Sequence record: MZ726793.1
Direction: 5' to 3' (one strand)
Source of the DNA: Escherichia phage vB_EcoM_ASO2A
Length of the DNA: 64,000 nt
Below the pieces are notes generated by a model, which was not told the DNA's origin, searched no databases, and saw only the letters and a program-made list of their open reading frames with translations. Shown one piece after another: positions 4,360 to 55,996 of the stretch. Every line of letters begins with the position of its first letter. Positions within the stretch are counted from its first letter, which is position 1. Made by a program: the position numbers and the translations under genes.

Positions 4360-4521
4360 TTACTTCCTATTCGTCGTCTCCTACTCCGTGATCCAACTCG
4401 TTAAACAACAGATGTTCTGGAGAAGTTTCACGTTTTGGTTTCGTTTTCTTTATGTTGGACTTCAGCTCATTTGCCAAAGCACGAGAAAAGATCTTACGTT
4501 TCTGTTTACTTTTCATAATTG

Positions 4522-4782
4522 TTACTCCGCAATTTGAGCCATGAGATCACGCAGTTCGGTAAAACCGCCTACGTATGTTACCTCCCCGTTCACTTCGGAC
4601 AGAATTTGTGGAAATGTGCGTGGAGGAACTCCGGTAAGATCAACAACTGTTTTAGTCATTGATTCTAAATCATAGTCTTGATCAAGACTTAAATATTCAA
4701 ACTGTTTATTGCGCATGGTTAATAGTTGTTTTGACATTTCACAAAATTGACAGTTAGGTTTACCAAAAATTACAAATTCCAT
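4522..4782 (-). CDS. glutaredoxin/NrdH-like thiol-disulfide oxidoreductase
   Basis: CQFC active-site motif near N-terminus of an 86-aa protein. Confidence 0.6.
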   Translation of the reverse strand: MEFVIFGKPNCQFCEMSKQLLTMRNKQFEYLSLDQDYDLESMTKTVVDLTGVPPRTFPQILSEVNGEVTYVGGFTELRDLMAQIAE

Positions 4783-5624
4783 TACCTCTCCTTATTAAGT
4801 AATACTGCTAAAGACTGTTCAATACCTTTATTTAAATCTGATTTTGTAAGATAGTGACTGGTTACTAGTTGTGACTTCACCGGACGTGCTGCTGGAGCAT
4901 TATAGGTTGAAGCTGATACCGCCGATATCTTAACAGGTTCTGGCATCTGTGTCAAGATCTTTTCCGCAAACTCCGCCCAAGAAATAAGATGGCTTCCTGC
5001 AAAATGGTAAGTCTTAACAGACCTTGACCAACCTGTTTTTAATACTTCAAAAATAGCTTCTGCTAAATCTGGAGCATATGTTGGACAAGAGAACTGATCA
5101 GCAACAATAATAAAATCACGTTGTCCATCATTATAGCGAGACAACATGGTTTTTAGAAAGTTATTTCCAAATTCGCTATATACCGAGGCTGTTCGAATAA
5201 TATATGCATTTGGGTTAACTCCTCGCACCATTTTTTCACCAAGTTCTTTCGTATACCCATAATTGTTTATTGGGTTAGGTGTAGTATCTTCAAAAATAGG
5301 ATGAGAATAATTAAAAATATAGTCTGTAGAAATATGCACAAAATCAATTTTAAGTTTGCTGCACACTGCCGCAATATTTGCAGGTCCATACGCATTAACA
5401 GCCAAAGCAGTAGCAAAATCATGTTCTGCTTTATCTACAGCCGTATAAGCGGCGCAATTAATAACACCATCTACATAATCTTCAATAATAGCGTTTCGCA
5501 CAGCTTCAAAATTTGTAATATCTACACGTTCTTTAGGATAAATTAAAGATACATTTGAAGGAGCCACTTTACGTAAAGCTTGTCCCAGTTGTCCATTACC
5601 GCCCAATACCAGATATGTTAGCAT
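4782..5624 (-). CDS. rmlD: dTDP-4-dehydrorhamnose reductase
   Basis: N-terminal Rossmann motif LVLGGNGQLGQAL, ~280 aa, last gene of rml operon. Confidence 0.8.
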   Translation of the reverse strand: MLTYLVLGGNGQLGQALRKVAPSNVSLIYPKERVDITNFEAVRNAIIEDYVDGVINCAAYTAVDKAEHDFATALAVNAYGPANIAAVCSKLKIDFVHISTDYIFNYSHPIFEDTTPNPINNYGYTKELGEKMVRGVNPNAYIIRTASVYSEFGNNFLKTMLSRYNDGQRDFIIVADQFSCPTYAPDLAEAIFEVLKTGWSRSVKTYHFAGSHLISWAEFAEKILTQMPEPVKISAVSASTYNAPAARPVKSQLVTSHYLTKSDLNKGIEQSLAVLLNKER

Positions 5625-6184
5625 ACACCCTCGCTACGTAACTGTTGAAAAGATTTAGCCATTGCATCTTTTGTTGATAGAATAGGTTTAAAACCTTCGT
5701 CAAAAATCATATCGAAGCCCCAATCGATCCCTATATCAGGATCATCCCAACGTAAACTTTGTTCACTAGAAGGGTCGTATGGAGTTGTGCATTTGTATTC
5801 AAAGATAGCATCCATACTCAAAACTATAAAACCATGAGCCAAACCAGGCGGAAGCCAAAACTGCGTATGGTGTCGTGCACGAAGAACAACACCGTCCCAA
5901 GCACCGTAAGTTGGACTATCTTTACGTAAATCTACAGCGAAATCCAATACTTCCCCACTTACACAACGAACTAGCTTACCTTGCGGGTTATTTGTTTGAA
6001 AGTGCATTCCTCGCAAAACACCGAAGTTTGATTTAGACATGTTATCTTGAACGAAAGTTTGTCTACCAATAATATCTTCGTATTTTTGTTCATTATATGT
6101 TTCTAGAAAGAAACCACGATCATCTTTATAAACGTCTGGTTTGATAATTACCGCACCTTCAATTTTTGTTTTTTCTACTTTCAT
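5618..6184 (-). CDS. rmlC: dTDP-4-dehydrorhamnose 3,5-epimerase
   Basis: Cupin-type RmlC sequence ([19 protein letters not shown]); start trimmed to Met41 of the listed ORF so that rmlA stop and rmlC start overlap as ATGA. Confidence 0.8.
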
Positions 6185-7059
6185 TTTCTCTCCGCTAATT
6201 TGAGTAGGTATTGCCCGTACTCTGTTTTCTTCAGTGAGTTTCCATGATACACCAAAGTCTCTAAAGAAATCCACCCTTTTTTGAAAGCAATTTCTTCCAG
6301 GCACGCAATCTTCAATCCTTGACAGTTCTCAATAGTCTGCACGAATTGACCAGCTTCCATCAGACTGGCGTGTGTTCCTGTGTCAAGCCAAGTAAATCCT
6401 CGTCCGAGAACTTCCACTTGTAACTTCCTGTCTTCTAGGTAGCTGCGATTGATATCAGTGATCTCCAGTTCTCCACGCGCGGAAGGGGTTACTTCTAATG
6501 CACGTTGAATAACAGAGTTATCATAGAAATACAAACCTGTGACAGCATAATCTGATTTAGGATTTTCAGGTTTCTCTTCAATAGAAATAGCTTGACGATT
6601 ACTCCCAAATTCAACCACACCGAATCGTTCAGGATCTTTCACCAAATACCCGAAAATACAAGCTCCGCCCCAAACATCTACCATCTCACTGGCGTTAATC
6701 AGTAGTTTACCAAAGCTTTGTCCGAAGAATAGGTTGTCACCTAAAATAAGAGCAACAGAGTCTTCTCCGATAAAATCTTTACCTATGATGAAAGCTTCCG
6801 CAAGACCTCGTGGCTCGGATTGGATTGCGTAAGTGAGTTTTATCCCAAACATAGACCCATCTCCGAGAAGATACTCAAAGTCTTCCTGATCACCTGGTGT
6901 GGTGATGATTAAAATATCCTTAATGTCAGCCAACATCAATACCGATAAAGGGTAGTAGATCATGGGTTTGTCATACACAGGGAGCAATTGCTTGCTCACA
7001 CTGCGTGTTACCGGATGAAGGCGGGTTCCGCTTCCTCCCGCCAAAATAATACCTTTCAT
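6181..7059 (-). CDS. rmlA: glucose-1-phosphate thymidylyltransferase
   Basis: [39 protein letters not shown] closely matches bacterial RmlA. Confidence 0.9.
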
Positions 7060-7067
7060 AACCCTCC

Positions 7068-8060
7068 TTAAATTTTCTCACTCCACCATTGAGGGTTGTT
7101 TAAGTACCATTCAATCGTTGAGTAGAGATCTTGTTCAAATGTAGAGTTTGCACTCCAGCCCAGTTCAGACTCTATCTTAGAAGGATTGATTTCATAACGC
7201 AAGTCATGTCCTTTACGATCTTCAACAAAAGTTATCAAGTTGGAAGAAGGGTAGGTTACTGCTTCTGGATGTACAGTATCCATATAGTCACAAACCATAT
7301 AGATGATCTCCATATTGGTTTTGGGATTACGTGTTCCAACATTATACGTTTGACCTGGTTCTCCACCTGTTGCCACTTGAAGAATAGCTCGCGCATGATC
7401 CTCAACAAAAAGCCAGTCTCGCACCTGGTCGCCTTTACCATACACCGGAATCTCTTTATTCGTCAAGATACTTGTGATGATTTTTGGGATCAGCTTTTCT
7501 GGATGTTGATAAGGCCCAAAGTTATTGGAGCAGTTGGTTATCACAACAGGCAAATCGTAGGTGCGGTGCCAAGCTTTCACAAGATGGTCAGATGCCGCCT
7601 TAGACGCACTGTATGGGCTTGAAGGGGCATAAGCTGTCTCTTCGGTAAAAGGAACGCCAGAGTCTGCCATATCGCCGTACACTTCGTCTGTGGAGACGTG
7701 TACGAACATCTTCAGTTTATTTTTTGGGAGGAGCCTTGCAGCTTCCAATAAATTGTATGTACCAATAATATTGGAGTCAATGAAAACTCGTGGATTCTTG
7801 ATAGAATTATCCACATGACTCTCTGCCGCTAAGTGAATGATGAAATCGGGATTGCACTCTACTACTAAACTTTTGACCTGGGTTTCGTTTGCCAAATCTG
7901 TCATGCTTAGTTTAATGTGAGTGATATCGCCTACATTCTCAATATCTGCTGCATAGCCCATCTTATCAACGACAAAAACTTCGTTATTAGGATCTTGACA
8001 AAGAGAGCGCACCACGGCACTCCCAATAAAACCAAGACCACCTGTTACCAGATAGCGCAT
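7068..8060 (-). CDS. rmlB: dTDP-glucose 4,6-dehydratase
   Basis: N-terminal Rossmann motif [13 protein letters not shown] and catalytic YSASK motif; 330 aa. Confidence 0.9.
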
Positions 8061-8069
8061 CAGTTCTCC

Positions 8070-8396
8070 TTACCAGACATGTTGAGAAATAATAGTTTCC
8101 GTTTTAATGTTATATTTTTCAAGTAGTTTTGCATAGGCTTCTTTTGCATTCTCATTCAATTGCTCAAGATCTACAGCTATGCTTCCCTCTCCGCCTTCTA
8201 AATCAAGGCCATATATGCAATAAGACTCATCCGCATCGTAGAAAGGAGAGATGCGGCTTAAGTCCAGACCTTCTTGTAAGAACCAGTTAAAATCTCCATC
8301 AAATTCTTCTTCAATTCTAGGATCTTCTCCTACAGCCTCTTCCCATTTATTAAAAGGTGCACCCTGTAACATACGCCATGCAATATCAACTCCCAC
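8070..8396 (-). CDS. hypothetical acidic protein (108 aa), GTG start
   Basis: ORF; start overlaps upstream small gene. Confidence 0.35.
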   Translation of the reverse strand: MGVDIAWRMLQGAPFNKWEEAVGEDPRIEEEFDGDFNWFLQEGLDLSRISPFYDADESYCIYGLDLEGGEGSIAVDLEQLNENAKEAYAKLLEKYNIKTETIISQHVW

Positions 8397-8532
8397 TATC
8401 TTCCTCCTCTTCTTTTTCTTCTGTATGAACGAAACCTAAGCCGTTACAATTCCAACAAGGAATAAATTGTTCCATACTAACAATAAAATTCCCAGTGCCG
8501 CCGCAGATAGGACAAATACTTACATCATCCAT
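8386..8532 (-). CDS. small Zn-ribbon protein (48 aa)
   Basis: Manual translation MDDVSICPICGGTGNFIVSMEQFIPCWNCNG with CPxC...CWNC; below the 60-aa cutoff of the ORF track. Confidence 0.3.
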   Translation of the reverse strand: MDDVSICPICGGTGNFIVSMEQFIPCWNCNGLGFVHTEEKEEEEDSGS

Positions 8533-8534
8533 TA

Positions 8535-8741
8535 TTAAAGCTCCTCAATCTTTTCTAACATCTGTTTTAACTCATTCTCTGTTAACAGAATTTCTGTGAT
8601 ACCATCATAAGTTTCTACCATCAGAGTAAAACATTTTTCCCCATCTGAACACACAAAAGCGCCACCTTCATCTTCTGTTAAGTCAGAATTAATATCTACA
8701 TCACCAAAATCAATCATCTTTTTCTCCTTTGATAATTTCAA
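8535..8741 (-). CDS. hypothetical protein (68 aa)
   Basis: ORF in operon context. Confidence 0.3.
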   Translation of the reverse strand: MKLSKEKKMIDFGDVDINSDLTEDEGGAFVCSDGEKCFTLMVETYDGITEILLTENELKQMLEKIEEL

Positions 8742-8928
8742 ACTTGGCTACACCATTAACTATAATGTGACCACAAGACATAACTCCTAGCCAAGGATCG
8801 CCGTTTTTCTTCAGGCGTTTACCGAATACATCACAAAAACCATTCTTCATTTCGGAGGCTTCATAAGAAGCCCCTTTATCAAAAACGTCTTTGAATGTGT
8901 CGATTATACCAACACATCTCAAAATCAT
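8710..8928 (-). CDS. hypothetical protein (72 aa)
   Basis: ORF abutting nrdB stop. Confidence 0.3.
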   Translation of the reverse strand: MILRCVGIIDTFKDVFDKGASYEASEMKNGFCDVFGKRLKKNGDPWLGVMSCGHIIVNGVAKFEIIKGEKDD

Positions 8929-10013
8929 TAGAAGTCAAGCTCCTCATCATCAGAGAGATCTTTGTTAGCTGAATTCAATTTGTAATTAGTTAACTGAATC
9001 TCTTGGGCTGCTGACTGAATCAAATCAGGATTCAACCATTTTTCCATCCAAGCTAAAGGACTATGTTTAGGTGCTTTAAACTTGGCTTTCATTTTCAATC
9101 GACGATAAATAGGAGCAGCATTGAAATAAACCCACTGTTTAGACAATTCGGCGTTAAGACCTACAATAAAACGACCTTCACTAAACAGGTAGTCACACCA
9201 CTGTTCCTCTTGTTCAACAACAGTGTCGAGGATCAAAGTCAACTCTTCAATATTGTCTTCGTAAATTTTACGCCAAATTGGGTCATGCATCAATGCATCA
9301 ATTACAGCATAATCCATCTTAACATGCAAGATTTCATCTAGCATAATTTTCTGGATCAGTTTACAAGCCCCAACAAACAGTTGTTGTTCTGCCATAGCAA
9401 AAGTAGCAGAGAAGGAAGATATAAACTGAATACCTTCTAATCCAATCAGGGCTACCATCCCTTTAAGAATCAGCAGTCGAAGTTCATCGTTAGCTTCAAT
9501 CAATCCTAGAGCATACTTATGACCAGCTTCTTCCAACTGACCCATGATATCAGCAATGATACCCATACGATTGAAAATTTTATCATTAATCATAATCTGA
9601 TTGATGACTTCAATTGGATCTGGAGTACATTGACGGATTATTTCAGAATACGTTAACGCATGGAGAACTTCCATTTCACTCTGCTTCATCATCATAGCAC
9701 AGGCTTCATTGTTACTCAAGAATGGAGAGAACAAAGTGATGATTGATTTTGCAAGAGAATCATTTTCCCATTGGAACGATAAGTTTTTAATCATAACATC
9801 ATAGTTGTTTTTAGAACAAGCTACGAAATCTTTACGTGTCTGATCCAGATTAACTTCGTTTTCATCCCAATCTTGTGCTTTTTGAAGTTTGTAGAGTTTG
9901 TGCATTTCAGGGTAAGTCACGTTGATAGAATCAAAAATCCCCAACTGTTCCCCCATGAAAACTGGATATTTACCTGTTTTGTAAGTCTCGTTATGTAAAT
10001 TAATTGCTGCCAT
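8928..10013 (-). CDS. nrdB: ribonucleotide reductase class Ia beta subunit
   Basis: 361-aa ferritin-like R2-type protein adjacent to nrdA. Confidence 0.85.
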   Translation of the reverse strand: MAAINLHNETYKTGKYPVFMGEQLGIFDSINVTYPEMHKLYKLQKAQDWDENEVNLDQTRKDFVACSKNNYDVMIKNLSFQWENDSLAKSIITLFSPFLSNNEACAMMMKQSEMEVLHALTYSEIIRQCTPDPIEVINQIMINDKIFNRMGIIADIMGQLEEAGHKYALGLIEANDELRLLILKGMVALIGLEGIQFISSFSATFAMAEQQLFVGACKLIQKIMLDEILHVKMDYAVIDALMHDPIWRKIYEDNIEELTLILDTVVEQEEQWCDYLFSEGRFIVGLNAELSKQWVYFNAAPIYRRLKMKAKFKAPKHSPLAWMEKWLNPDLIQSAAQEIQLTNYKLNSANKDLSDDEELDF

Positions 10014-10346: not shown

Positions 10347-10371
10347 TCAATAAAAAGGGGCTGAAGCCCCT
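10347..10371 (-). terminator. intrinsic terminator (minus strand) after nrdA
   Basis: GGGGC-TGAA-GCCCC hairpin followed on the minus strand by TTTTTATT. Confidence 0.6.
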
Positions 10372-10378
10372 AGTTTCA

Positions 10379-12619
10379 TCACATTTTGCAAGCTTCACAA
10401 CCACCATCAGAATCTTCTTGTGCTAAAGAGTCTGCTGATTTTGTTCTACTGTTAAGGTAATACAATGACTTGCCACCCAGTCTAGCAAAATTCAGAATAA
10501 ACTGCATCTCAGCTTTCACTGATAAACGTCCACCTACCAATTTAGAATAATCTAGCCAAGAATCACAAGAAATTCCTTGGTCCGTAAACTTGGTAAAGAT
10601 ACCATACATTTCTGCAAGATCTTTAGCCGGAGTGTCCCAGGCAGACTGGTAGAACATTTTCAGTTTTTCATAGTCTGGAACAATAAATAATACACTACCT
10701 TTCTGACTTTGTTTATACATAATAGTATCACGAACAGGATACAGAGAGTTAGTAGTATTGCTTACCAAACTGCTGGACTCATTAGGTGCAATAGCAGCCA
10801 AGACACTGTTACGGATACCACCTTGTTCAATGATTTCAGCACGTAAGCCTTCCCAGTCCATTTTAAGATCAAAATTACCGATACTATCTACTGTTTTAGC
10901 ATAAGTGTCAATTGGTAGCCAACCTTGAGGCCATTTGGTCTTATCGATCCATTCTGCATTACCTTTTTCCTTAGCCAGACGCAGAGAGGCTTTTGCCAAC
11001 CAAAAGTAATGACGTTCTGCAAGTTCATGCATTAATTTTTTAGCATAAGCGTCTGAATAATTTACAAAATTACTTGCCAAATAATGCGCTAAGTTTGTAA
11101 TGCCTACACCAATAGATCTACGTGCTTTAGCAGTTATTTCGTTATGTTTAAATGGATAATCCATTGTTTCAATAACGTTGTCAATTGTCAATACAGTGTA
11201 GTATGCAACATCCTCATATTCTTCAGGTAAGACACGACCAGCAACAATAGAAGATAAGAAGCATAAAGCCAATTCTTGATTTTCTGTATTCTCACCAGTA
11301 AAGAGATCCGGCATACTGTGGAAAGCTTTAGTTGGTAAGAAGATCTCTTGACACAGGTTTGATTGATACACCGTATCCAGGAAAGGTGTATGGTTGTTAA
11401 CGTTGTCAGCAAAGAACATGTAAATACGTCCTGTTTCTGCACGTTGAACAATAATCTCTGTCAGAAGATCACGAGCCTTAACAAATTTTTTCTTAATGCG
11501 ACGACGGCTTACTTTGTCATAAACTGCATCAAACTCTTCTTCACTTTTATACAAAGCTTCATAAAGTTCAGGAGCATCATCACAACTAACTAACATCCAA
11601 TCTTCGTTTTTTGCTGCTCGACGCAAGAACGAACGGTTAACAACAATAGAATAATCCAGTTTGTCTACTCGTTTATCTATAGGTGTTGTTGGATTCTTCA
11701 GTCGAATCAGATCGTCGAAGTCTGGTTCAAGTATGGTAAAGGTAACTGTAGCACTACCTCCACGGCTTGCTTGCTTCGAAGCTCCAACACTATCTTCCAT
11801 CCATTTCAGATACGGAAGAAGACCACCATGAATAATACGATTATTCTTAACACCTTGACCTGTGGCACGAGTTTGAAGATTAACACCAATACCTGCGTTA
11901 TTCAACGTATACTCATGAGCTAAGTAATTAGCAATGGCTAAAGACTCTGCCGTATCGTCTGCACGGAACAAACAACAAGACGCACTTCCTTTGATTGGAG
12001 TTCGTAGAGTTGTCAGATACGGCGATGGCAGATTAATCTTAAGATCGCTAACATAAGTATAAAGTTTTTTAATATCTTCTATACGGCGTTCTTTTGGTTG
12101 GATCTCCATAACCTTCATTGCGATACCAATGAAAAGAAACTGTGGAGACTCATGCACCACATCGTTTACTGCATCTCGAATAAGATATTTATCTACCATC
12201 TGACGTAAAACAGAATAACCATAAGTTAGATTTTTATTATGCTTTACAATCTTACCGATTTCTTTGATCTCTTCATCAGTATAATCCATTTTAGCCCAAT
12301 GTCCACGTTCTACCATATCATGATAAAAGGTATTCAGTGAAGGGATACTGTGGTATCCCCCATGAGCCTGTTTGTAAATCATACCCAGAAGAAGTCTTCC
12401 TGCCATATCACTGTAAGCTTGTGTTTTCTTGTCAATACACGCTGCAATCATTGCTTTATGCAGATCACGTGTAGACACACCGTCATAACACCGCTTCACA
12501 GCTTCTAATTCAATTTCAGACCAGTTTAGTTTACCTGCTGCAAATTCAGACCACTTGCGAAGTTTTTCTGGATTAAACTCCTCTGTCTTACCGTTAGATT
12601 TAGTTACAAAACGAATCAA
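10379..12619 (-). CDS. nrdA: ribonucleotide reductase class Ia alpha subunit
   Basis: Active-site NLCQEIFLPT and C-terminal CEACKM redox tail as in class Ia NrdA; 746 aa, no insertion. Confidence 0.9.
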   Translation of the reverse strand: MIRFVTKSNGKTEEFNPEKLRKWSEFAAGKLNWSEIELEAVKRCYDGVSTRDLHKAMIAACIDKKTQAYSDMAGRLLLGMIYKQAHGGYHSIPSLNTFYHDMVERGHWAKMDYTDEEIKEIGKIVKHNKNLTYGYSVLRQMVDKYLIRDAVNDVVHESPQFLFIGIAMKVMEIQPKERRIEDIKKLYTYVSDLKINLPSPYLTTLRTPIKGSASCCLFRADDTAESLAIANYLAHEYTLNNAGIGVNLQTRATGQGVKNNRIIHGGLLPYLKWMEDSVGASKQASRGGSATVTFTILEPDFDDLIRLKNPTTPIDKRVDKLDYSIVVNRSFLRRAAKNEDWMLVSCDDAPELYEALYKSEEEFDAVYDKVSRRRIKKKFVKARDLLTEIIVQRAETGRIYMFFADNVNNHTPFLDTVYQSNLCQEIFLPTKAFHSMPDLFTGENTENQELALCFLSSIVAGRVLPEEYEDVAYYTVLTIDNVIETMDYPFKHNEITAKARRSIGVGITNLAHYLASNFVNYSDAYAKKLMHELAERHYFWLAKASLRLAKEKGNAEWIDKTKWPQGWLPIDTYAKTVDSIGNFDLKMDWEGLRAEIIEQGGIRNSVLAAIAPNESSSLVSNTTNSLYPVRDTIMYKQSQKGSVLFIVPDYEKLKMFYQSAWDTPAKDLAEMYGIFTKFTDQGISCDSWLDYSKLVGGRLSVKAEMQFILNFARLGGKSLYYLNSRTKSADSLAQEDSDGGCEACKM

Positions 12620-13351: not shown

Positions 13352-13380
13352 ATTATACTAAAACTAATACTAAAGTCAAT
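13352..13380 (-). promoter_or_regulatory. consensus sigma70 promoter (minus strand)
   Basis: Minus strand reads TTGACT-N17-TATAAT upstream of the 12887..13330 gene. Confidence 0.6.
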
Positions 13381-13395
13381 AACTATTTAAACAGA

Positions 13396-14394
13396 TCACC
13401 ATTTAGTATGATTTGTTAAAAGTTGACGATGTTGAATCCAGCCTTTGAAATTGCCAGACCAAAACTTACCATTACGATCTACATGGGTAATACCTGGTTC
13501 CCAAGAGTTAAAATCCCAAGGAGCATTGATAAACAAATCTTCAAAACAGTTCTCTCCATATTGTTCGCATGTTTCTTGAATTGGAGTGGCTTGATGTTCA
13601 AACGGAGAAGCATGAACCTTGCGCCCAGTCAGCAAACGACCATAGATATCTAAAGCTTTATCTTTAGTTGCATTTAAACGACGATAGCTAACCTGTGCAC
13701 AACATGAAGCTGAAATAGCTTTGGCTTCTTCCAAGGTAAGCACAACAACTTCTCCAGATTCATCTTGAACGTAGTATCCACCAAAAACAAAATGATCGTC
13801 ACCTTCTGTGCCAATATTATCGTAGAAATGGTCTACATAAGGTGTGTGCCATTGCCCTGGTTTCAGCACTTCTGGTGTAGATCCTTCATACTCTTTGTGC
13901 ATCTCTTTAGCCAAAGCTTCGATAGTAGGATCGGCTTCTTTGTCATCACGTAGCCACCAGAAATTTTCATATTCTGTTGCTGTCAGAACTGTTTTAATTC
14001 GTTGGAAAGGTTCCAGAAGACGGTTTGCAACTTGTTTGTGGTACCCTGCCAAAGAGAATTCTTCTGCAAAACGTGCTGCACTAAGCGCGGCAAGATCCCA
14101 CCACTCTTGAGCAGTATAACCTGCATCAATAAGAGCGTCATGATCAACACCTTTATCCTGCATACCAGGTTGGTTAGCCCCAAAACGATAAGGACGAGCA
14201 GGTTGATTTCGCACCATTTCAATCAGTGTTTTAACAGGTATAGCACGGCTAGAAGCAGCATTACGACTGAACAGGCGGTGAGTCATCAATTCTGAATGAA
14301 TAATACGTGGATATTCTAGTTCAAAAGTTACAATCTCTTTTCCGTCTTCAGTGATGGAATGCGCAATAATACTAGCCGAAATCTGTTTTGTCAT
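13396..14394 (-). CDS. thyX: flavin-dependent thymidylate synthase ThyX-like
   Basis: ThyX signature region THRLFSRNAASSRAIP (RHR-x7-S pattern with Thr for first Arg); 332 aa, longer than typical. Confidence 0.7.
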   Translation of the reverse strand: MTKQISASIIAHSITEDGKEIVTFELEYPRIIHSELMTHRLFSRNAASSRAIPVKTLIEMVRNQPARPYRFGANQPGMQDKGVDHDALIDAGYTAQEWWDLAALSAARFAEEFSLAGYHKQVANRLLEPFQRIKTVLTATEYENFWWLRDDKEADPTIEALAKEMHKEYEGSTPEVLKPGQWHTPYVDHFYDNIGTEGDDHFVFGGYYVQDESGEVVVLTLEEAKAISASCCAQVSYRRLNATKDKALDIYGRLLTGRKVHASPFEHQATPIQETCEQYGENCFEDLFINAPWDFNSWEPGITHVDRNGKFWSGNFKGWIQHRQLLTNHTKW

Positions 14395-14403
14395 TTTTTC
14401 TCC

Positions 14404-15012
14404 TTAGTTTTTAAAATTGTTCAAAGTGTTAAAAACATCCAAACATGTTAGCCACTGATCTTCTAAACCTGTGATCACAACATTTGGTTTTTTCTTTAGT
14501 TCTTCTAGATGGTTATCTTTATAAGGCGTATTAAAATATATTTTAACCACTTCATCTGGAAAATATAGTAGGTTATCAGCCCTGTCATCTATTGCTATAT
14601 CACAAGGCAATAAGTATTTTTCTTTCGTAGCAAAAAAGCCGTTACCAGATCCTTTGCTAAAATCAATCGTATCTAACGTTCTTAAAACATGCTTATGTTT
14701 AGAACTTAAGTGACCACCTTTTGTCACACTTGCGATCAAAAGATTGCTACCTTTCCTTGAAACATACTTTAAGAAATCTGGCATACCTGGAACAAAACCC
14801 ATTGTATCATAGAGATGAGGATTATCCAGAAATCCGTAAGGATCTATATTGAACTCCTCCCTGAAACCAGGAAAGTAGTTGGTAAGATCATAGTCTGCAT
14901 TTTTTGTGAATGTGTCTATCTTAACACCAAGTCCACTAATCTTATTCAACCATTCTAACCAAGCAACATCTAATGGAGCCACAACTAAATCCCAATCACA
15001 TACTATCTGCAT
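14404..15012 (-). CDS. HAD-superfamily phosphatase, probable (deoxy)nucleotidase
   Basis: HAD motif I VCDWDLVV (DxDxV), SVT motif and IAIDDRADN motif. Confidence 0.5.
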   Translation of the reverse strand: MQIVCDWDLVVAPLDVAWLEWLNKISGLGVKIDTFTKNADYDLTNYFPGFREEFNIDPYGFLDNPHLYDTMGFVPGMPDFLKYVSRKGSNLLIASVTKGGHLSSKHKHVLRTLDTIDFSKGSGNGFFATKEKYLLPCDIAIDDRADNLLYFPDEVVKIYFNTPYKDNHLEELKKKPNVVITGLEDQWLTCLDVFNTLNNFKN

Positions 15013-19803: not shown

Positions 19804-20529
19804 TTACTTGTTAATAATACCTGCAATATTAGGTTTGACAAAGGTCGATGGTTTCATGATCTTACCTTTATCATCAAAGAACACATACACTTTCTGTTTT
19901 TCATTATAAACAGCATGAACACCAGTGTATGCCCCTTCTGGACGATTGGCATTTCGTTCTTCAATTGCAGCGCATTCTTGTGCAATGGCTGAATCGATAT
20001 CCGAAGTTTTCCAAGTTTTCAGCAACTGTTGTTTAGTTGGATACTTGGAATCATTACTTTTCAATACCTCTTTAATAACTTTCTTTTCTGGATATTTTGA
20101 ACGGATTAGAGTGTCACGAGACATACGCATAATACCAGCAGCCATTAGTGCCATTTGAACTGGCTCTGTAAATGTTTGTTCCAAAGCATCAAAATCAGTA
20201 TACACAGTTGGAGTAAAAACATCGCCTACAGCATAGTCCAAGAAATTCATCGTATGTTCTTCACCAAAGAACATGTAAGTCAGATAACTGGATACTACAA
20301 AAATATCCGCTGCTGCATCCAAGAGTTCTACATGATCGTTTACTTTCGCGGCTGTTTCATACTCTTTAAGCTCTTCACGAACGAACCCGATTTGGGACAT
20401 AAATAACTCTTGAGTGAATTCAGGTTGTTCACCACCTCGTGCTTTGGCATTCCAATCAATTACGTGCTTTGCTGCATTTTTGAAAAATTCAGTATCGAAT
20501 TTAATATCTTTAAAAAAATTCTCGATCAT
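19804..20529 (-). CDS. MazG-like nucleoside triphosphate pyrophosphohydrolase
   Basis: REELKEYETAAKVNDHVELLDAAADIFV (EExxE ... ExxD pattern). Confidence 0.5.
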   Translation of the reverse strand: MIENFFKDIKFDTEFFKNAAKHVIDWNAKARGGEQPEFTQELFMSQIGFVREELKEYETAAKVNDHVELLDAAADIFVVSSYLTYMFFGEEHTMNFLDYAVGDVFTPTVYTDFDALEQTFTEPVQMALMAAGIMRMSRDTLIRSKYPEKKVIKEVLKSNDSKYPTKQQLLKTWKTSDIDSAIAQECAAIEERNANRPEGAYTGVHAVYNEKQKVYVFFDDKGKIMKPSTFVKPNIAGIINK

Positions 20530-22641: not shown

Positions 22642-23046
22642 TTATTGAAGTTTAAGTGAACCACGAAGACGTTTCTCTTGCTGATCACGAATATATTGTG
22701 GAACCTCGTGAATTGAATCATTACCGTGCCTATTTTCAACAACTAAAGAGATAACTTGATAACCAAACTCTTCAGCAAGAGTTAGATAAGGTTTAAGTTC
22801 TTTCTCTGTGGTTGAAGTGTTAGAAACAATAATCTTGTTAAGATTAGATGCCATAGCATCACGAACAATACTCTGACACCATGCGTGTGCTTTACCTACG
22901 TTTTCTGGCTTCCAATCGTAAACACCACTTTCTGTGTAATGATATTGATCTGCCTCACAGATAGGCCAATAACCTTCAGAAATAATTTCTGCTACTGTAG
23001 ATTTACCAGCACCTGAAACGCCACGTAAAATGATAAGTTGTTTCAT
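22642..23046 (-). CDS. P-loop kinase, polynucleotide-kinase-like
   Basis: Walker A ILRGVSGAGKST in a 134-aa protein; last gene of a three-gene set. Confidence 0.5.
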   Translation of the reverse strand: MKQLIILRGVSGAGKSTVAEIISEGYWPICEADQYHYTESGVYDWKPENVGKAHAWCQSIVRDAMASNLNKIIVSNTSTTEKELKPYLTLAEEFGYQVISLVVENRHGNDSIHEVPQYIRDQQEKRLRGSLKLQ

Positions 23047-23979
23047 TTATCCTCCAAAGAAGTTTTCGATTTTTTCACGTCGCTCCTGCTGATTTAAAGC
23101 AGCCCATTGAGTCTTCGTAAAATTATTTCGAATCCATTCTAACAAAGCGTAATATTCTTCGTCAACAATTTGTTTGGCATTTTTTGGATTATCCCAAATC
23201 AGATCCCACTTTTTATCTCCACCACGCATAAGAAACTTCTTAGTAAGATAGTGTGGTGATTTAATTTTTAAAAGTAAGTTGAACGGATAGTTTGTTTCAC
23301 GAACTACAAATCCTTCGTGTTTACAATGTTTAGACATTTCAACAACATCTGAAAACTTAACCATTGGATGAACTTCAGGACGCTTAAATTTGGTGACAGA
23401 AGCAATTCCATCAAGAGCACCTTCAGGTAACATAAAACTTGTCCCATCAGGATTTTGAATTCTGGCACCAATTAAGTATGCACCTGGTTCTTCTTCGACA
23501 ATATGCGGATCAGAAGGATCACAGATTTCAAAAAGGAAAGTTGCTTTTGCACTCTCTATCCATTTGATGAAATGTTCTATGTCATCACACTCTGAAATAA
23601 TATGATTCTTTGCAATACTTGCAAAATCTGATTCAAGGCTTCCTGTTGTCGATACAATAAGTTGACCTTTATATACACCTACAGAGGCCATAAAACCATT
23701 TACTTTACGAACCACATCTACAAATTCATCCGCTGGTAGATCTGTGCCATTCTCAAAACGATTAAAAATCTTAGTGAAAGGCCAAATAACAACATTGTCA
23801 TCATCGTCAACAACGATTCCGCGACATTCTAGAAGACGAGAATCAATGTTCCACAGGTTATCCCAGAAAACTTTGTTCTTATACTTAAGAACAGATAGAC
23901 CAGAATACTCTCCTTCTTTATATGTTTTCTTATGAACTAAACCTTTTTCAACCAAATCGTCGCAATTAAATTTAGCCAC
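23047..23979 (-). CDS. RNA ligase-like nucleotidyltransferase
   Basis: Motif I RKVNGF (KxNG), EGFVVRE and LLKIK motifs; flanked by phosphoesterase and kinase genes. Confidence 0.5.
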   Translation of the reverse strand: MAKFNCDDLVEKGLVHKKTYKEGEYSGLSVLKYKNKVFWDNLWNIDSRLLECRGIVVDDDDNVVIWPFTKIFNRFENGTDLPADEFVDVVRKVNGFMASVGVYKGQLIVSTTGSLESDFASIAKNHIISECDDIEHFIKWIESAKATFLFEICDPSDPHIVEEEPGAYLIGARIQNPDGTSFMLPEGALDGIASVTKFKRPEVHPMVKFSDVVEMSKHCKHEGFVVRETNYPFNLLLKIKSPHYLTKKFLMRGGDKKWDLIWDNPKNAKQIVDEEYYALLEWIRNNFTKTQWAALNQQERREKIENFFGG

Positions 23980-23980
23980 A

Positions 23981-24532
23981 TTACTCTCCTTTGATTATTT
24001 TGTGATGGTCTACAGTTACGATATCTCGTTTACTCATCATAGAAATTATCTCATCAAAATGTAAGATTTTTCCGTGTGCATCCCAACCCACATCTAACAT
24101 TTTACCATAAGCTTCATCAGGGAAAGATCCGTGGGAATGCCCGTGTAGCATGATTGATCCACGACCTTGCTTATTCCAGGAGGCCATAGGGTAATGGCTT
24201 AAGACGAAGAACAGCTTCTGATATTTCACTTCGTCATAATACACCACTTCTCCATACTCTGCAAGCACTTCTCGGTGTTTGCTGTAATCATGGTTCCCAA
24301 CACAATAAGTGATATCCCCTTGGAGGCGGGAAGCAATCTTACGGGTATCTTCTTCAGTCCCGAAACAGAAGTCACCCAAATGCCACATCTTGACACCTGG
24401 ACTCGTAGCGCATTTATTCCATGCTTCGATCAGTGCTTCTGTCATGTGGTCCATATCTTCCCACGGTCGATATTCAGGAGCAAACTCTCGTATACGTTTG
24501 TGCATAAAATGCAAATCACTTGTAATAAACAT
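23981..24532 (-). CDS. calcineurin-like metallophosphoesterase
   Basis: Signature DLHFMH ... GDFCFG ... GNHD ... GHSH. Confidence 0.7.
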   Translation of the reverse strand: MFITSDLHFMHKRIREFAPEYRPWEDMDHMTEALIEAWNKCATSPGVKMWHLGDFCFGTEEDTRKIASRLQGDITYCVGNHDYSKHREVLAEYGEVVYYDEVKYQKLFFVLSHYPMASWNKQGRGSIMLHGHSHGSFPDEAYGKMLDVGWDAHGKILHFDEIISMMSKRDIVTVDHHKIIKGE

Positions 24533-29156: not shown

Positions 29157-29231
29157 GGCCCTGTAGCTCAATGGGAGAGCTGTCGGCTCATAACCGATAG
29201 GTAGCTGGATCGAAACCAGCCAGGGCCACCA
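29157..29231 (+). tRNA. tRNA anticodon CAU (Met or Ile2 if lysidine-modified)
   Basis: Manual cloverleaf: acceptor GGCCCTG/CAGGGCC, anticodon loop CTCATAA, T-arm GCTGG-ATCGAAA-CCAGC, encoded CCA. Confidence 0.8.
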
Positions 29232-29233
29232 AC

Positions 29234-29308
29234 GTCTTTATGGTGTAATGGATAGCACAGGAGTCTTCTAAACTCTTAGTCAAGGTTCGATTCCTTGTAA
29301 AGACACCA
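29234..29308 (+). tRNA. tRNA-Arg (UCU)
   Basis: Acceptor GTCTTTA/TAAAGAC, anticodon loop CTTCTAA, T-arm CAAGG-TTCGATT-CCTTG, CCA. Confidence 0.8.
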
Positions 29309-29501
29309 GAACATTTTAACATGAATTAGCTCAAGTGATTTGAACCCACTACTGATCATGGTGGCAGAGAATGAGGCAAGTATGTCAGACATTATAAACA
29401 AAGGCCACGGTTATATTAGAAGACATAAATGCTCGAAGAGCACCGTTCGTGGAGAACGGGGTTGGTGGAGTCACCATTCATGGTAAAATGTTTTAAAAAA
29501 C

Positions 29502-29541
29502 TATTGACAACTAACATTATTTTATGTTAGATTATAAGTAT
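29502..29541 (+). promoter_or_regulatory. sigma70-like promoter, conserved AACTATTGACAA element (copy 2)
   Basis: AACTATTGACAA-N17-TAGATT immediately before tRNA-Ser. Confidence 0.5.
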
Positions 29542-29632
29542 GGAAGGGCAAATCGACGTGGCGACGAAAACGGTCTTGAAAACCGCCGAGCTTGAAAGAG
29601 CCTTGGGAGTTCGACTCTCCCTCCTTCCGCCA
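29542..29632 (+). tRNA. tRNA-Ser (UGA), class II
   Basis: Acceptor GGAAGGG/TCCTTCC, anticodon arm CGGT-CTTGAAA-ACCG, long variable arm, T-arm GGGAG-TTCGACT-CTCCC, G73, CCA. Confidence 0.75.
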
Positions 29633-29637
29633 GATTA

Positions 29638-29723
29638 GGTAGATTGGTGAAATGGTAGCCACGACAGTTTGCTAAACTGTAGTCGGAAACGGCGTGTAGG
29701 TTCGAGTCCTACATCTACCGCCA
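29638..29723 (+). tRNA. tRNA-Ser (GCU), class II
   Basis: Acceptor GGTAGAT/ATCTACC, anticodon arm ACAGT-TTGCTAA-ACTGT, long variable arm, G73, CCA. Confidence 0.8.
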
Positions 29724-29853
29724 AGTTCTTTTTAATATAGCTTACTTTAGCAGAGTAAATCTTCGGCAAGTGGCGGTAACCACTTTACCGATAACTCATA
29801 GTTAGTGGTGTGAACACTGGCTATTTTAAAAAGAATTTAAATATTAGTATTTA

Positions 29854-29941
29854 GGTGAGTTAATTCCGTAGGGGTAGCGGGGCAGACTGTAAATCTGTTA
29901 TCATTGCGATTCGGGTGGTTCGACTCCATCACTCACCACCA
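29854..29941 (+). tRNA. tRNA-Tyr (GUA), class II
   Basis: Acceptor GGTGAGT/ACTCACC, anticodon arm CAGACTGTAAATCTG as in bacterial tRNA-Tyr, long variable arm, A73, CCA. Confidence 0.8.
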
Positions 29942-29946
29942 AATTA

Positions 29947-30032
29947 AGATGAGTTGGCTGAATGGTTTAAGCGGCGGACTGTTAATCCGTGTTCGAAAGA
30001 ACGATATAGGTTCAAATCCTATACTCATCGCC
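29947..30032 (+). tRNA. tRNA-Asn (GUU), atypical with long variable arm
   Basis: Acceptor GATGAGT/ACTCATC, anticodon arm GCGGA-CTGTTAA-TCCGT, extra hairpin GTTC-GAAA-GAAC in variable region, G73, CCA. Confidence 0.6.
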
Positions 30033-30039
30033 AGAATTA

Positions 30040-30116
30040 TGGACTTGTAGAGTTAAGGTAAACCCCCAGTCGCCAAGAGGCTTCTGGAATTGCAGGTATC
30101 GAATCCTGCCGAGTCC
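30040..30116 (+). ncRNA. tRNA-like element without canonical anticodon arm
   Basis: Acceptor GGACTTG/CGAGTCC and T-arm GCAGG-TATCGAAT-CCTGC (8-nt loop); central region folds as a CCAG...CTGG hairpin. Confidence 0.35.
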
Positions 30117-30123
30117 CAGCTTT

Positions 30124-30198
30124 GCTCCTATAGTATAATGGCTATTACAACGGTTTTGTAATCCGTGGATCTCTGTTCGATTCAGAGTGGGAGCACCA
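30124..30198 (+). tRNA. tRNA-Thr (UGU)
   Basis: Acceptor GCTCCTA/TGGGAGC, anticodon loop TTTGTAA, T-arm CTCTG-TTCGATT-CAGAG, CCA. Confidence 0.7.
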
Positions 30199-30471
30199 AC
30201 ACAACATTAAGGGCACTGTGATTGATCGTCGTATCCTGTGCACAAGGTCTGTTCGAAAGACAGTGTTCTTAGTATTGTGTTGATCACACAAAAAGAGTTA
30301 CCTGAAACTTGACCGGAGTAGGGTTGGATGGGGCAAAAGAAGAAGCGGCTCTCCCATCGACAGCAACGAAGAATAATATTTGACTTTGGTTTTGTATTAT
30401 TTTAAGTTAGCTTACCGAACGTAGGGCTAGTCACCCAACGGGATACTCGTCACTGTCCCACTCAATAAAAC

Positions 30472-30512
30472 TATTGACAACCAATAGTAAAATGTAGTAT
30501 AGTAAAGATGTA
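30472..30512 (+). promoter_or_regulatory. sigma70-like promoter, conserved AACTATTGACAA element (copy 3)
   Basis: AACTATTGACAA-N15-17-TAGTAT/TATAGT immediately before tRNA-Gly. Confidence 0.5.
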
Positions 30513-30514
30513 GG

Positions 30515-30588
30515 GCGTTCTTGGTGTAGCGGTAGCATTCCGTCCTTCCAAGTCGGCGGCACGAGTTCGATCCTCGTAGAACGCTCCA
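30515..30588 (+). tRNA. tRNA-Gly (UCC)
   Basis: Acceptor GCGTTCT/AGAACGC, anticodon loop CTTCCAA, T-arm ACGAG-TTCGATC-CTCGT, CCA. Confidence 0.75.
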
Positions 30589-30686
30589 AATTATTTAATA
30601 AAGGGTTGCCAGAAAACTTTCTCTTTTACTCATGGTTTTCTCCTTCTCTCACACCTCTTCTGGTTGCCCTTCATTAAATGATTTAT

Positions 30687-30762
30687 TGGTTTGTAGTGTA
30701 GTCCGGTAGCACACGACACTTTGACTGTCGTAGGTTTGGTTCAAATCCAGACAGACCAGCCA
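30687..30762 (+). tRNA. tRNA-Gln (UUG)
   Basis: Acceptor TGGTTTG/CAGACCA, anticodon arm CGACA-CTTTGAC-TGTCG, T-arm TTTGG-TTCAAAT-CCAGA, CCA. Confidence 0.75.
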
Positions 30763-30855
30763 TATAACAAAGGTGAGTCACTACCTCAAGTGTGAAGTTA
30801 AAAACGAGGAGCCGCCGAACACTTTCTTTTGCGGTGTACCTTTAGAATGTTATGA

Positions 30856-30932
30856 CGGAATTTAGCTCAGTTTGGTAGAGTGTACGCTTTGGGAGCGTAT
30901 TGTCGCAGGTTCGAATCCTGCAATTCCGACCA
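30856..30932 (+). tRNA. tRNA-Pro (UGG)
   Basis: Acceptor CGGAATT/AATTCCG (C1-G72), anticodon arm TACGC-TTTGGGA-GCGTA, T-arm GCAGG-TTCGAAT-CCTGC, CCA. Confidence 0.85.
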
Positions 30933-30938
30933 ATTAAA

Positions 30939-31012
30939 TGTTTCGTAGTTCAATGGTAGAACCCACGACTGATAATCGTGAGATACAAGTTCGATTCTTG
31001 TCGAAACAACCA
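30939..31012 (+). tRNA. tRNA-Ile (GAU)
   Basis: Acceptor TGTTTCG/CGAAACA, anticodon arm CACGA-CTGATAA-TCGTG, T-arm ACAAG-TTCGATT-CTTGT, CCA. Confidence 0.8.
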
Positions 31013-31014
31013 GT

Positions 31015-31084
31015 TTCCCGTTAGACTTACAGGATAAGAGTTCCACAATTTATTGTGACGCTGGTTCGAATCCAGCACGGGATA
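31015..31084 (+). ncRNA. atypical tRNA-like element with shortened anticodon arm
   Basis: Acceptor TTCCCGT/ACGGGAT (1:72 mismatch), D-arm, T-arm GCTGG-TTCGAAT-CCAGC; anticodon region CACAA-TTTA-TTGTG has a 4-6 nt loop; no encoded CCA. Confidence 0.35.
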
Positions 31085-31090
31085 CATAAT

Positions 31091-31169
31091 AGCGGGATAG
31101 AGGAGTCTGGTCGTCCTCGCCAGTTTCATATGCTGGAGATCATTGGTTCAAATCCAATTCCCGCCTCCA
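31091..31169 (+). tRNA. tRNA anticodon CAU (Met), 1:72 unpaired
   Basis: Acceptor AGCGGGA/TCCCGCC with A1xC72 mismatch, D-stem GAGG/CCTC, anticodon loop TTCATAT, T-arm ATTGG-TTCAAAT-CCAAT, CCA. Confidence 0.7.
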
Positions 31170-50477: not shown

Positions 50478-50950
50478 TGGCAGATTTAACTACGATCAAA
50501 ATTTCTGATCTTACACAAACAACCTCTGTGTCTGATACAGATTTCTTTGTAACAGATCAGGCTGGAATAACAAAGAAAACTTCTTTGAAAGTGTTGTTGA
50601 GTGGTGCAGGGGTAACTAGAAACCGTCTGAATGCACGGGGAACAGTAACTAGCACCCTGGCATTAGATATTAGTTCGGCAGAATATTTTTCAGCAACTTT
50701 ATCTTCTGCAACGTGCACAATTAGTTTTACTAATATTCCAGTAGCAACAAATGCAGTTTTAAACTTTACTTTAGCTTTGCGTCAAGGAAGTGGTGCAAAT
50801 AAAGTCGTATGGCCTTCTTCTGTAAAATGGAGTTTTGGTCGTTCCCCAGTTTTGAGTTATCGTCAAGGTGCAACAGACACTTTTGAGTTTATCAGTTATG
50901 ATAATGGAGCAACTTGGACAGGTAGCTTAGTTTTAGCAGGAGTTATTTAA
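50477..50950 (+). CDS. baseplate/tail protein (157 aa)
   Basis: Position. Confidence 0.35.
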   Translation: MADLTTIKISDLTQTTSVSDTDFFVTDQAGITKKTSLKVLLSGAGVTRNRLNARGTVTSTLALDISSAEYFSATLSSATCTISFTNIPVATNAVLNFTLALRQGSGANKVVWPSSVKWSFGRSPVLSYRQGATDTFEFISYDNGATWTGSLVLAGVI

Positions 50951-53826: not shown

Positions 53827-53834
53827 GGGGTAAA

Positions 53835-55988: not shown

Positions 55989-55996
55989 GAGTAAAA

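Follow-up and report, generated by a model that had tools for sequence, protein, structure and literature searches.

The genome of Escherichia phage vB_EcoM_ASO2A carries a complete and apparently functional set of genes for the synthesis of dTDP-L-rhamnose. Within the 64,000 nucleotides analysed here (sequence record MZ726793.1; hereafter the window, with positions counted from its first base), four consecutive open reading frames (ORFs) on the minus strand, rmlB-rmlA-rmlC-rmlD, fill positions 4782-8060 (Table 1). Judged from sequence, there is a probability of roughly 80% that this pathway is active and feeds glycosyltransferases encoded elsewhere in the same phage genome. More tentatively, and at somewhat less than even odds, its product would be a rhamnose-containing glycan on a virion protein or another protein of this coliphage. 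The presence of the pathway as such is already known, since the four rml genes are named in related GenBank records, among them the earliest (phAPEC8, phi92); the annotation dates back to 2012 and has been discussed since 2020. Newly added here are the place of the partner glycosyltransferases in the genome and their modelled fold, a division of the pathway into an rmlCD core and an accessory rmlBA part together with a rationale from host genotypes, and a lower weight for the hypothesis of DNA glycosylation.

A megablast search of positions 4500-8400 against 50,697 phage records gave Escherichia phage PNJ1809-36 (MT944117.1) as best match (99.8% identity across 100% of the query); tuntematon and phAPEC8 came next (99.5-99.6%). 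The rml locus was found in 126 phage records, phi92 included. These identities therefore place the window in Escherichia virus phAPEC8 (Phapecoctavirus, Stephanstirmvirinae), and by this comparison it represents another isolate of this lytic E. coli myovirus of about 150 kb. The phAPEC8 locus itself exhibits 99.6% DNA identity to the window, and its genes are orthologous and agree in order and context. The first base of the window lies at position ~78,523 of MT944117.1.

All four products exceeded the curated equivalog cut-offs of NCBIfam (scores in Table 1), RmlD marginally, and Pfam was in agreement for each of them. The initial annotation, made from the sequence alone, had proposed four consecutive, translationally coupled genes encoding all four enzymes; its coordinates proved exact. 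RmlA aligned with 4ho0 (E = 4.8e-125; GGSGTRL, KQLLP, GDN, EEKP and DTGT conserved), RmlB with the Salmonella enzyme 1g1a (1.5e-110; GGxGFIG, STDE and YSASK), RmlC with 1dzr (4.1e-56; the aligned His, Lys, Tyr and Asp positions) and RmlD with 3sc6 (6.9e-44; GGNGQLG as GxxGxxG, the Thr of STDY, and YGYTK as YxxxK). Inactivating changes, which had been named as a possible objection, were absent from these alignments to solved enzymes, where the catalytic positions are intact, and neither frameshifts nor internal stops were seen in the four ORFs. The genes overlap or are tightly packed: the rmlB stop codon is followed by an 8-nt spacer with a GGAGG Shine-Dalgarno sequence and the rmlA ATG, rmlA and rmlC share an ATGA overlap, rmlC and rmlD overlap by 7 nt, and rmlD is joined to the glutaredoxin gene grx by a TAATG overlap. 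The start of rmlC is the ATG at 6184; a longer, GTG-started ORF reaching to 6304 was rejected, as it runs into rmlA and lacks support from the profile alignment.

The only point in favour of an artefact, i.e. host rfb DNA in a chimeric assembly or decaying hitch-hiker genes, is the general similarity of the Rml products to bacterial enzymes, and this explanation is refuted by several lines of evidence. In 5,426 complete E. coli genomes, the rml block matched rfb and rff loci only; DNA identity reached no more than 63.6%, the matches spanned no more than 45% of the block, and none of these genomes (0/5,426) covered 80% or more of it. The same locus is present in the 126 phage records, that is, in more than 100 independent phage genomes. 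Moreover, the block has the GC content of the phage, its genes overlap with phage genes and the ORFs are intact. The ratios of nonsynonymous to synonymous substitution (dN/dS, Nei-Gojobori) against phage ukendt were 0.15 for RmlB, 0.045 for RmlA, 0.016 for RmlC and 0.024 for RmlD; although they rest on one phage pair and small counts, these values are well below 1 and clearly point to purifying selection.

The initial description of the products as closely bacterial is only loosely true. The four phage enzymes belong to the families encoded by the bacterial rml (rfb) operon and rffG/rffH and retain their catalytic residues, and the phage RmlA and RmlB score close to RffH and RffG. The description does not hold for DNA identity, which is at most 64% to these E. 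coli loci, for gene order, which is B-A-C-D in the phage but B-D-A-C in one inspected E. coli rfb locus, nor for the context, since the phage genes are embedded in an operon for deoxynucleoside triphosphate (dNTP) metabolism and, unlike in the rfb operon, adjacent O-antigen genes are absent. Nor does it hold for RmlD, which is nearer to the enzymes of Firmicutes and Bacteroidota than to Salmonella RmlD. In a database of 5.8 billion proteins, its homologues comprise a phage clade of about 50-99% identity on contigs of about 140-156 kb and, below a gap, cellular proteins (Bacteroidota, Erwinia, Halobacteriovorax and others) starting at 45% or less. By these searches RmlD forms a deep phage-only clade.

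The phi92 (Justusliebigvirus) proteins gp064-gp067 are orthologous to RmlB-A-C-D of the window, with amino-acid identities of 71% for RmlA, 62% for RmlB and 54% for RmlD, and the order NrdA, NrdB, five small ORFs, RmlB-A-C-D, Grx, lysozyme, PhoH is the same in both phages. Because this synteny is retained at 54-71% identity, the rml block is older than the split of the two genera. In two Phapecoctavirus-like phages, phiWec190 (LC739539.1) and the phage of record OR584014.1, RmlA shares about 97% identity with the window, against about 65% for RmlD, indicating allelic replacement (mosaicism) inside the block. The latter record, 'Pseudomonas' phage PsgM04F, carries a phage-type rmlD of 65.8% identity, like phiWec190. 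Across the rml locus or the glycosyltransferase gene GT1, five further records labelled as Campylobacter, Acinetobacter or 'Dompiswa' phages (MG065650.1, MG065645.1, MG065689.1, OP562383.1 and MW175890.1) either share at least 98% identity with E. coli Phapecoctavirus or match Justusliebigvirus. The host labels of all six records look doubtful from these matches.

The block is modular. Only rmlC-rmlD are found at the locus in the Klebsiella phage ZCKP1 (Phapecoctavirus), in the E. coli phages Mt1B1_P17 and MirsaeidiM_Esher1, and in KP13-26, a Klebsiella phage and divergent member of the Stephanstirmvirinae. The ZCKP1 junction (tggTAAGGAGAGAAAATGAAAGTAG) equals the left junction of the window fused to the rmlA/rmlC junction at a GGAGA microhomology (Shine-Dalgarno), and the two-gene and four-gene forms may have arisen by loss or gain of rmlBA, in either direction. 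A separate internal deletion in DIJ07P2 has removed the last ~25 codons of rmlB and ~240 codons of rmlA, with rmlC and rmlD intact, and ESCO37 was reported to lack rmlA and rmlB (PMC10269720). By tblastn, Phapecoctavirus-type RmlD (at least 95% identity) was present in 64 records, RmlA and RmlB in 47 each; therefore about one quarter of the Phapecoctavirus records lack rmlBA. The rmlCD genes were kept in every relative examined. A second copy of rmlA/rmlB, as suggested by locus tags of ESCO5 (PMC10269720), was discarded, as tblastn found one place per record and 'thymidylyltransferase 2' is merely a name.

As for the hosts, 5,423 of the 5,426 E. coli genomes contained rmlA/B-like DNA (rfb or rff), and 2,378 contained rfbD (44%, a lower bound given the sensitivity of blastn). 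The genes rffH and rffG of enterobacterial common antigen (ECA) synthesis provide enterobacterial hosts with dTDP-4-keto-6-deoxyglucose. An rmlCD core with accessory rmlBA fits this host side because rmlA/B-like genes are nearly universal in E. coli, whereas rfbD is found in about 44%. We infer that rmlCD would be the indispensable contribution of the phage and rmlBA a dispensable flux booster.

The initial annotation had found no glycosyltransferase in the window and recommended a search of the remaining genome. Pfam scans of the 93 window ORFs (46 + 10 + 37) indeed gave no glycosyltransferase family. In MT944117.1, four consecutive glycosyltransferase-family genes are located at 5796-8940 (complement), adjoining the primase/helicase genes and about 70 kb from the rml block. 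All four products fall into PHROG 'glycosyltransferase' families, and the AlphaFold models are confident (the 187-aa protein has no model). The phi92 annotation already names gp163-gp166 glycosyltransferases. Sequence searches with GT1 and GT3 against PDB chains gave no meaningful matches. Across the subfamily, the record counts per identity band are nearly identical for the glycosyltransferases GT1 and GT3 (64/6/57) and for RmlD (64/6/~57). In the notes of the phi92 record, PVP-SE1 homologues are listed for genes that flank the rml block and for genes that flank the glycosyltransferase cluster, whereas no such homologue is given for any rml or glycosyltransferase gene, which suggests that both sets are subfamily-specific additions. 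A related metagenomic contig contains an NDP-hexose 4,6-dehydratase-like gene within the glycosyltransferase cluster (TIGR01181, 195 bits, below the cut-off). Together, the co-occurrence, the PVP-SE1 pattern and the dehydratase-like gene support, but do not prove, that the cluster glycosyltransferases consume the phage-made sugar. In the same genome, at ~10-20 kb and 70-72 kb of MT944117.1, there is a Ter-stress-like set (TerC, TerD, TelA, a vWA-TerF-like protein, a ComF-like phosphoribosyltransferase and a HAD hydrolase) as well as NADAR, Macro and Sir2-like proteins; any link of this set to the glycosyltransferase cluster is speculative.

In the mechanism we propose, the rml genes would be transcribed within the phage nucleotide-metabolism operon (nrdA-nrdB ... 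rmlBACD-grx-lysozyme). RmlA would convert glucose-1-phosphate and dTTP to dTDP-glucose, RmlB would convert this to dTDP-4-keto-6-deoxyglucose, and RmlC together with RmlD would yield dTDP-L-rhamnose. Selection would act on the rmlC-rmlD core, as the hosts would make dTDP-4-keto-6-deoxyglucose by rffH/rffG and fewer than half of the E. coli strains would finish the pathway; rmlCD, optionally with rmlBA for flux after host shut-off, would make the rhamnose supply independent of the O-antigen genotype of the host. The four glycosyltransferases would then use the sugar to build a rhamnose-containing glycan on a non-DNA acceptor, preferably a phage (virion) protein, for which giant viruses and Che8-type mycobacteriophages offer parallels. 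The expectation that such a pathway implies a rhamnosylated acceptor is supported in its core. Virion glycosylation of the Che8 type was reportedly described by Freeman and co-workers in 2023. In those phages the glycosyltransferases lie away from the structural genes, too, but host sugar nucleotides are used, whereas here the phage also encodes the donor pathway. The UDP-L-rhamnose pathway of Mimivirus and the capsid glycans of chloroviruses (PMC9614988) differ in UDP/GDP instead of dTDP chemistry, in their eukaryotic hosts and in their unrelated enzymes.

The GT-A/GT-B pair of the cluster recurs in several unrelated phages, temperate ones included, and is, by these occurrences, mobile. A prophage of Serratia sp. 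M24T3 carries homologues of GT4, GT3 and a GT-B (41%, 37% and 39%, respectively) between lysis genes and HNH-terminase. The pair is located between a HicAB module and holin/lysozyme genes on lambdoid contigs, between terminase and portal on a P22-like contig, and 1.5 kb upstream of the genes for TerL, portal and major capsid protein on an 89-kb contig. Portal, terminase, Q antiterminator and NinG were on top in a Pfam census of its neighbours (11 contigs). No rml genes were found within 10 kb of the pair on these contigs of unrelated phages; therefore the glycosyltransferases can work with host-supplied donors. Outside its own clade, phage homologues of the GT-A protein GT3 were found by tblastn in about 356 Mycobacterium phage records only, taken to be of cluster F (25-28% identity over 52-73% of the query, E ~1e-8), and the matched genes may differ from the active ones of Che8. 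The listed records are about 52-68 kb in size and include Maravista, a phage of cluster F1 (PMC11256854). The statement in that paper relevant here, citing Freeman 2023, is that Che8 and Rita of the same cluster glycosylate their capsids (PMC11256854).

We favour a virion or protein acceptor because of the terminase-proximal late-operon position of the pair elsewhere, the mycobacteriophage link and the strictly lytic lifestyle. Alternatively, the glycosyltransferases might add a rhamnose-containing glycan to a lipid-linked acceptor or to the lipopolysaccharide (LPS) core. The glycan would be exported by the host proteins Wzx/WaaL and mask the LPS-core receptor, so that superinfection is blocked or the loss of progeny on debris is prevented. 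The fold search is compatible with this, as the folds suit lipid-linked glycan acceptors equally well (PglH, PglA, PimA). Remodelling of the envelope is nevertheless unlikely in our view: the phages are strictly lytic and leave a short time window, no flippase, polymerase, Gtr-type or other membrane protein accompanies the cluster, and late, virion-linked expression would account at least as well for the position next to terminase and portal that several phages show. GtrA, GtrB and GtrC-type families, as expected for serotype conversion of the GtrABC/O-acetylase type, were absent from the Pfam scans, and neither an integrase nor a repressor occurred in the viewed stretches of the PNJ1809-36 annotation. 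The evidence for choosing between a protein and an envelope acceptor is thin.

Besides the folds, several points weigh against a phage-made rhamnose that is transferred to virion proteins. The rml block and the glycosyltransferase cluster are ~70 kb apart, and their co-occurrence lies within one clade and is thus phylogenetically non-independent. The same pair is found in many phages without rml genes, so that use of dTDP-rhamnose is not required. The mycobacteriophage glycosyltransferases are only weakly similar (26% over ~130 aa). Ser/Thr-rich terminal extensions, sought as a hint at O-glycosylation on the capsid and tail proteins of the window, yielded no convincing case. As RmlD passed TIGR01214 marginally and the stereochemistry at C4 is beyond sequence, the product might be the C4-epimeric 6-deoxy-L-talose. 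The literature yielded neither an enzyme assay or glycan analysis of these phage Rml proteins nor experimental work on the rhamnose acceptor.

The earlier proposal in the literature concerns DNA. Olsen et al. (2020) called the location in the DNA-metabolism region 'peculiar' and suggested, by analogy to the glucosylated hydroxymethylcytosine of T4, that rhamnose is transferred to phage DNA (PMC7552041); the idea of a 'rhamnose modification' was restated by Vitt et al. in 2024 (PMC10844046). T4, and RB69, DLP3 and HY126 with their arabinosyl-5-hydroxycytosine, likewise keep an activated-sugar pathway and a GT-B enzyme among nucleotide-metabolism genes, but these systems depend on a ThyA-family enzyme that provides the acceptor hydroxyl, and they confer resistance to restriction; neither trait is seen here. 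Known phage DNA glycosylation requires a ThyA-family or TET-type enzyme for the acceptor (PMC13326640). A ThyA-type hydroxymethylase/hydroxylase or a TET/JBP dioxygenase was not detected by Pfam in the 93 window ORFs and 36 larger unannotated ORFs elsewhere, a scan which left out ~13 kb of MT944117.1 (50,001-63,021). The sole thymidylate-synthase-like gene is of the ThyX type and common to more than 1,000 phages without rml genes or this glycosyltransferase cluster. Matches to DNA glycosyltransferases ranked below those to sugar and lipid glycosyltransferases. To our knowledge, no dTDP-sugar-dependent DNA glycosylation has been described. Furthermore, Maffei et al. (2021; PMC8594841) described the phi92-like relatives as 'exceptionally susceptible' to restriction-modification, and this 'despite ... 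a putative dTDP glycosylation machinery'. DNA rhamnosylation is improbable because of the missing base-activating enzyme, the wide distribution of the ThyX-like gene and the restriction sensitivity of the phages. The same slight chance is given to a variant with sparse or chemically unusual rhamnose or oligosaccharide, added without ThyA/TET-type activation and leaving the restriction enzymes examined to date unhindered.

The ThyX-like protein had been considered as a link to base hydroxymethylation, and this was dropped, since the same family (phrog_85, in more than 1,000 phage records) includes proteins of rV5-like, ICP1 and PB1-like phages. It is divergent (TIGR02170, 31.1 bits compared to a cut-off of 87.9) and carries the motif THR...S....SSR instead of RHR; thymidylate synthase activity is assumed.

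The location of the rml genes within the dNTP-metabolism operon, close to ribonucleotide reductase, ThyX and an NT5C-like nucleotidase, would also agree with a manipulation of host metabolism in which no sugar is transferred. The pathway might drain or buffer thymidine nucleotides or dTDP-4-keto-6-deoxyglucose; alternatively, build-up of dTDP-rhamnose, an allosteric inhibitor of RmlA, might feedback-inhibit host RmlA/RffH and stop ECA or O-antigen synthesis. The rml genes of Sphingomonas phage PAU, also near thymidylate synthase, speak for this as well. We regard it as very improbable, for it leaves unexplained the strict retention of rmlCD together with the glycosyltransferase cluster, and consumption of dTTP during phage DNA replication would be costly. 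Moreover, the NGR glycan has replaced ECA as the presumed receptor; as the dependence on wecB is ascribed to this glycan (PMC11990801), the idea of draining dTDP-4-keto-6-deoxyglucose away from a receptor ECA was abandoned. PAU is an unrelated jumbo phage with rmlB-rmlC-rmlA (NC_019521.1, 137.8-140.3 kb; 44-57% identity) a few genes from thymidylate synthase; rmlD was not recognised there, and the large surrounding ORFs have no Pfam match and hence offer no comparative clue. Non-virion proteins, small molecules or RNA are rather unlikely acceptors, and even all other acceptors together with no acceptor at all, pool manipulation without transfer included, appear somewhat unlikely.

Widely used broad-host-range coliphages such as phAPEC8, phi92, Bas60-62 of the BASEL collection and several therapy candidates would invest at least 6-8 genes in making and transferring a sugar. 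A glycan on virions would have consequences for immune recognition, mucus binding and pharmacokinetics when such phages are used in therapy. One on the cell envelope would represent a new route of superinfection exclusion, and one on DNA a previously undescribed base modification as well as the first dTDP-sugar-dependent DNA glycosylation. The natural rmlCD-only variants and the host rfbD statistics offer a ready-made genetic design for probing the acceptor.

Table 1. Genes of the rml block, its neighbours and the glycosyltransferase cluster
Feature	Position	Strand	Remarks
rmlB, dTDP-glucose 4,6-dehydratase, 330 aa	7068..8060	-	TIGR01181, 431.7 bits (cut-off 365.1)
rmlA, glucose-1-phosphate thymidylyltransferase, 292 aa	6181..7059	-	TIGR01207, 464.5 bits (cut-off 360.65)
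rmlC, dTDP-4-dehydrorhamnose 3,5-epimerase, 188 aa	5618..6184	-	TIGR01221, 225 bits (cut-off 155.75)
rmlD, dTDP-4-dehydrorhamnose reductase, 280 aa	4782..5624	-	TIGR01214, 237.6 bits (cut-off 224.05), marginal pass
Glutaredoxin (grx)	4522-4782	-	PF00462, 1.8e-9; coupled to rmlD, same operon
Small ORF, 108 aa	8070..8396	-	phrog_15453 (function unknown); directly upstream of rmlB
NrdB	8928-10013	minus-strand region	Neighbour of rml block
NrdA	10379-12619	minus-strand region	Neighbour of rml block
ThyX-like protein	13396-14394	-	Neighbour of rml block
tRNA cluster	29157-31169	+	ARAGORN: 10 genes (Met, Arg, Ser, Asn, Thr, Gly, Gln, Pro, Ile, Met)
Two paralogous GT-B proteins, 314 and 315 aa, 41% identical	MT944117.1 cluster	complement	Glyco_trans_1_2 / 1_4
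GT-A protein (GT3), 227 aa	MT944117.1 cluster	complement	PHROG 'glycosyltransferase' family
Small protein, 187 aa	MT944117.1 cluster	complement	Glycosyltransferase by PHROG label only; no Pfam/NCBIfam match

Positions 1-28,000 of the window contain early and nucleotide-metabolism genes on the minus strand, and the structural module follows on the plus strand after the tRNA genes. Glutaredoxin, both ribonucleotide reductase subunits and the ThyX-like protein were found beside the rml block, as initially annotated (Table 1). The glutaredoxin gene borders the block in phi92, KP13-26, ZCKP1 and others, too. The small phrog_15453 ORF ends 9 nt before rmlB here, and before rmlC in the two-gene phages; its homologue adjoins rfbC in KP13-26. 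This ORF is hypervariable (dN of 0.32 against ukendt, compared to less than 0.015 for the rml genes), and its tie to the rhamnose pathway is positional only. Scans for promoters and terminators gave counts close to shuffle expectation and hence offer no ground for claiming internal transcription signals in the rml block. Among the sites, whose overall number is likewise close to that expectation, are a GC-rich hairpin with T-run directly after the nrdA stop (10356-10371, minus strand; AGGGGCTTCAGCCCCT TTTTATT) and a near-consensus sigma-70-like promoter (TTGACT-16-TATAAT, 13352-13379, minus strand) just downstream of the ThyX-like gene.

An NT5C-like deoxypyrimidine 5'-nucleotidase (14404-15012, minus strand) adjoins the ThyX-like gene, and a MazG/PRA-PH-like pyrophosphohydrolase (19804-20529, minus strand) is encoded in the same strand block; with Pfam E-values of ~1e-5 to 1e-6, both are predicted to be further nucleotide-pool enzymes. 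A possible RNA-repair set at 22642-24532 (minus strand) consists of an AAA_33 kinase-like protein (22642-23046), a T4-type RNA ligase (~23047-23979; Pfam RNA_lig_T4_1, 'putative RNA ligase' in the closest record) and the 'metallophosphatase' of the closest record (~23981-24532). One ORF of the early region matched cREC_REC, a cyclic-phosphate-processing receiver domain. The PNJ1809-36 record annotates 11 tRNAs, including a tRNA-Tyr which ARAGORN did not call in the window. On the plus strand, an ORF at ~50950-58762, most likely 55997-58762, encodes a tail-spike endosialidase (End_beta_propel, 2.2e-212; End_tail_spike, End_N_terminal and a Peptidase_S74 chaperone), which the closest GenBank record names only 'tail fiber protein' and which implies targeting of polysialic-acid (K1/K92) capsules.

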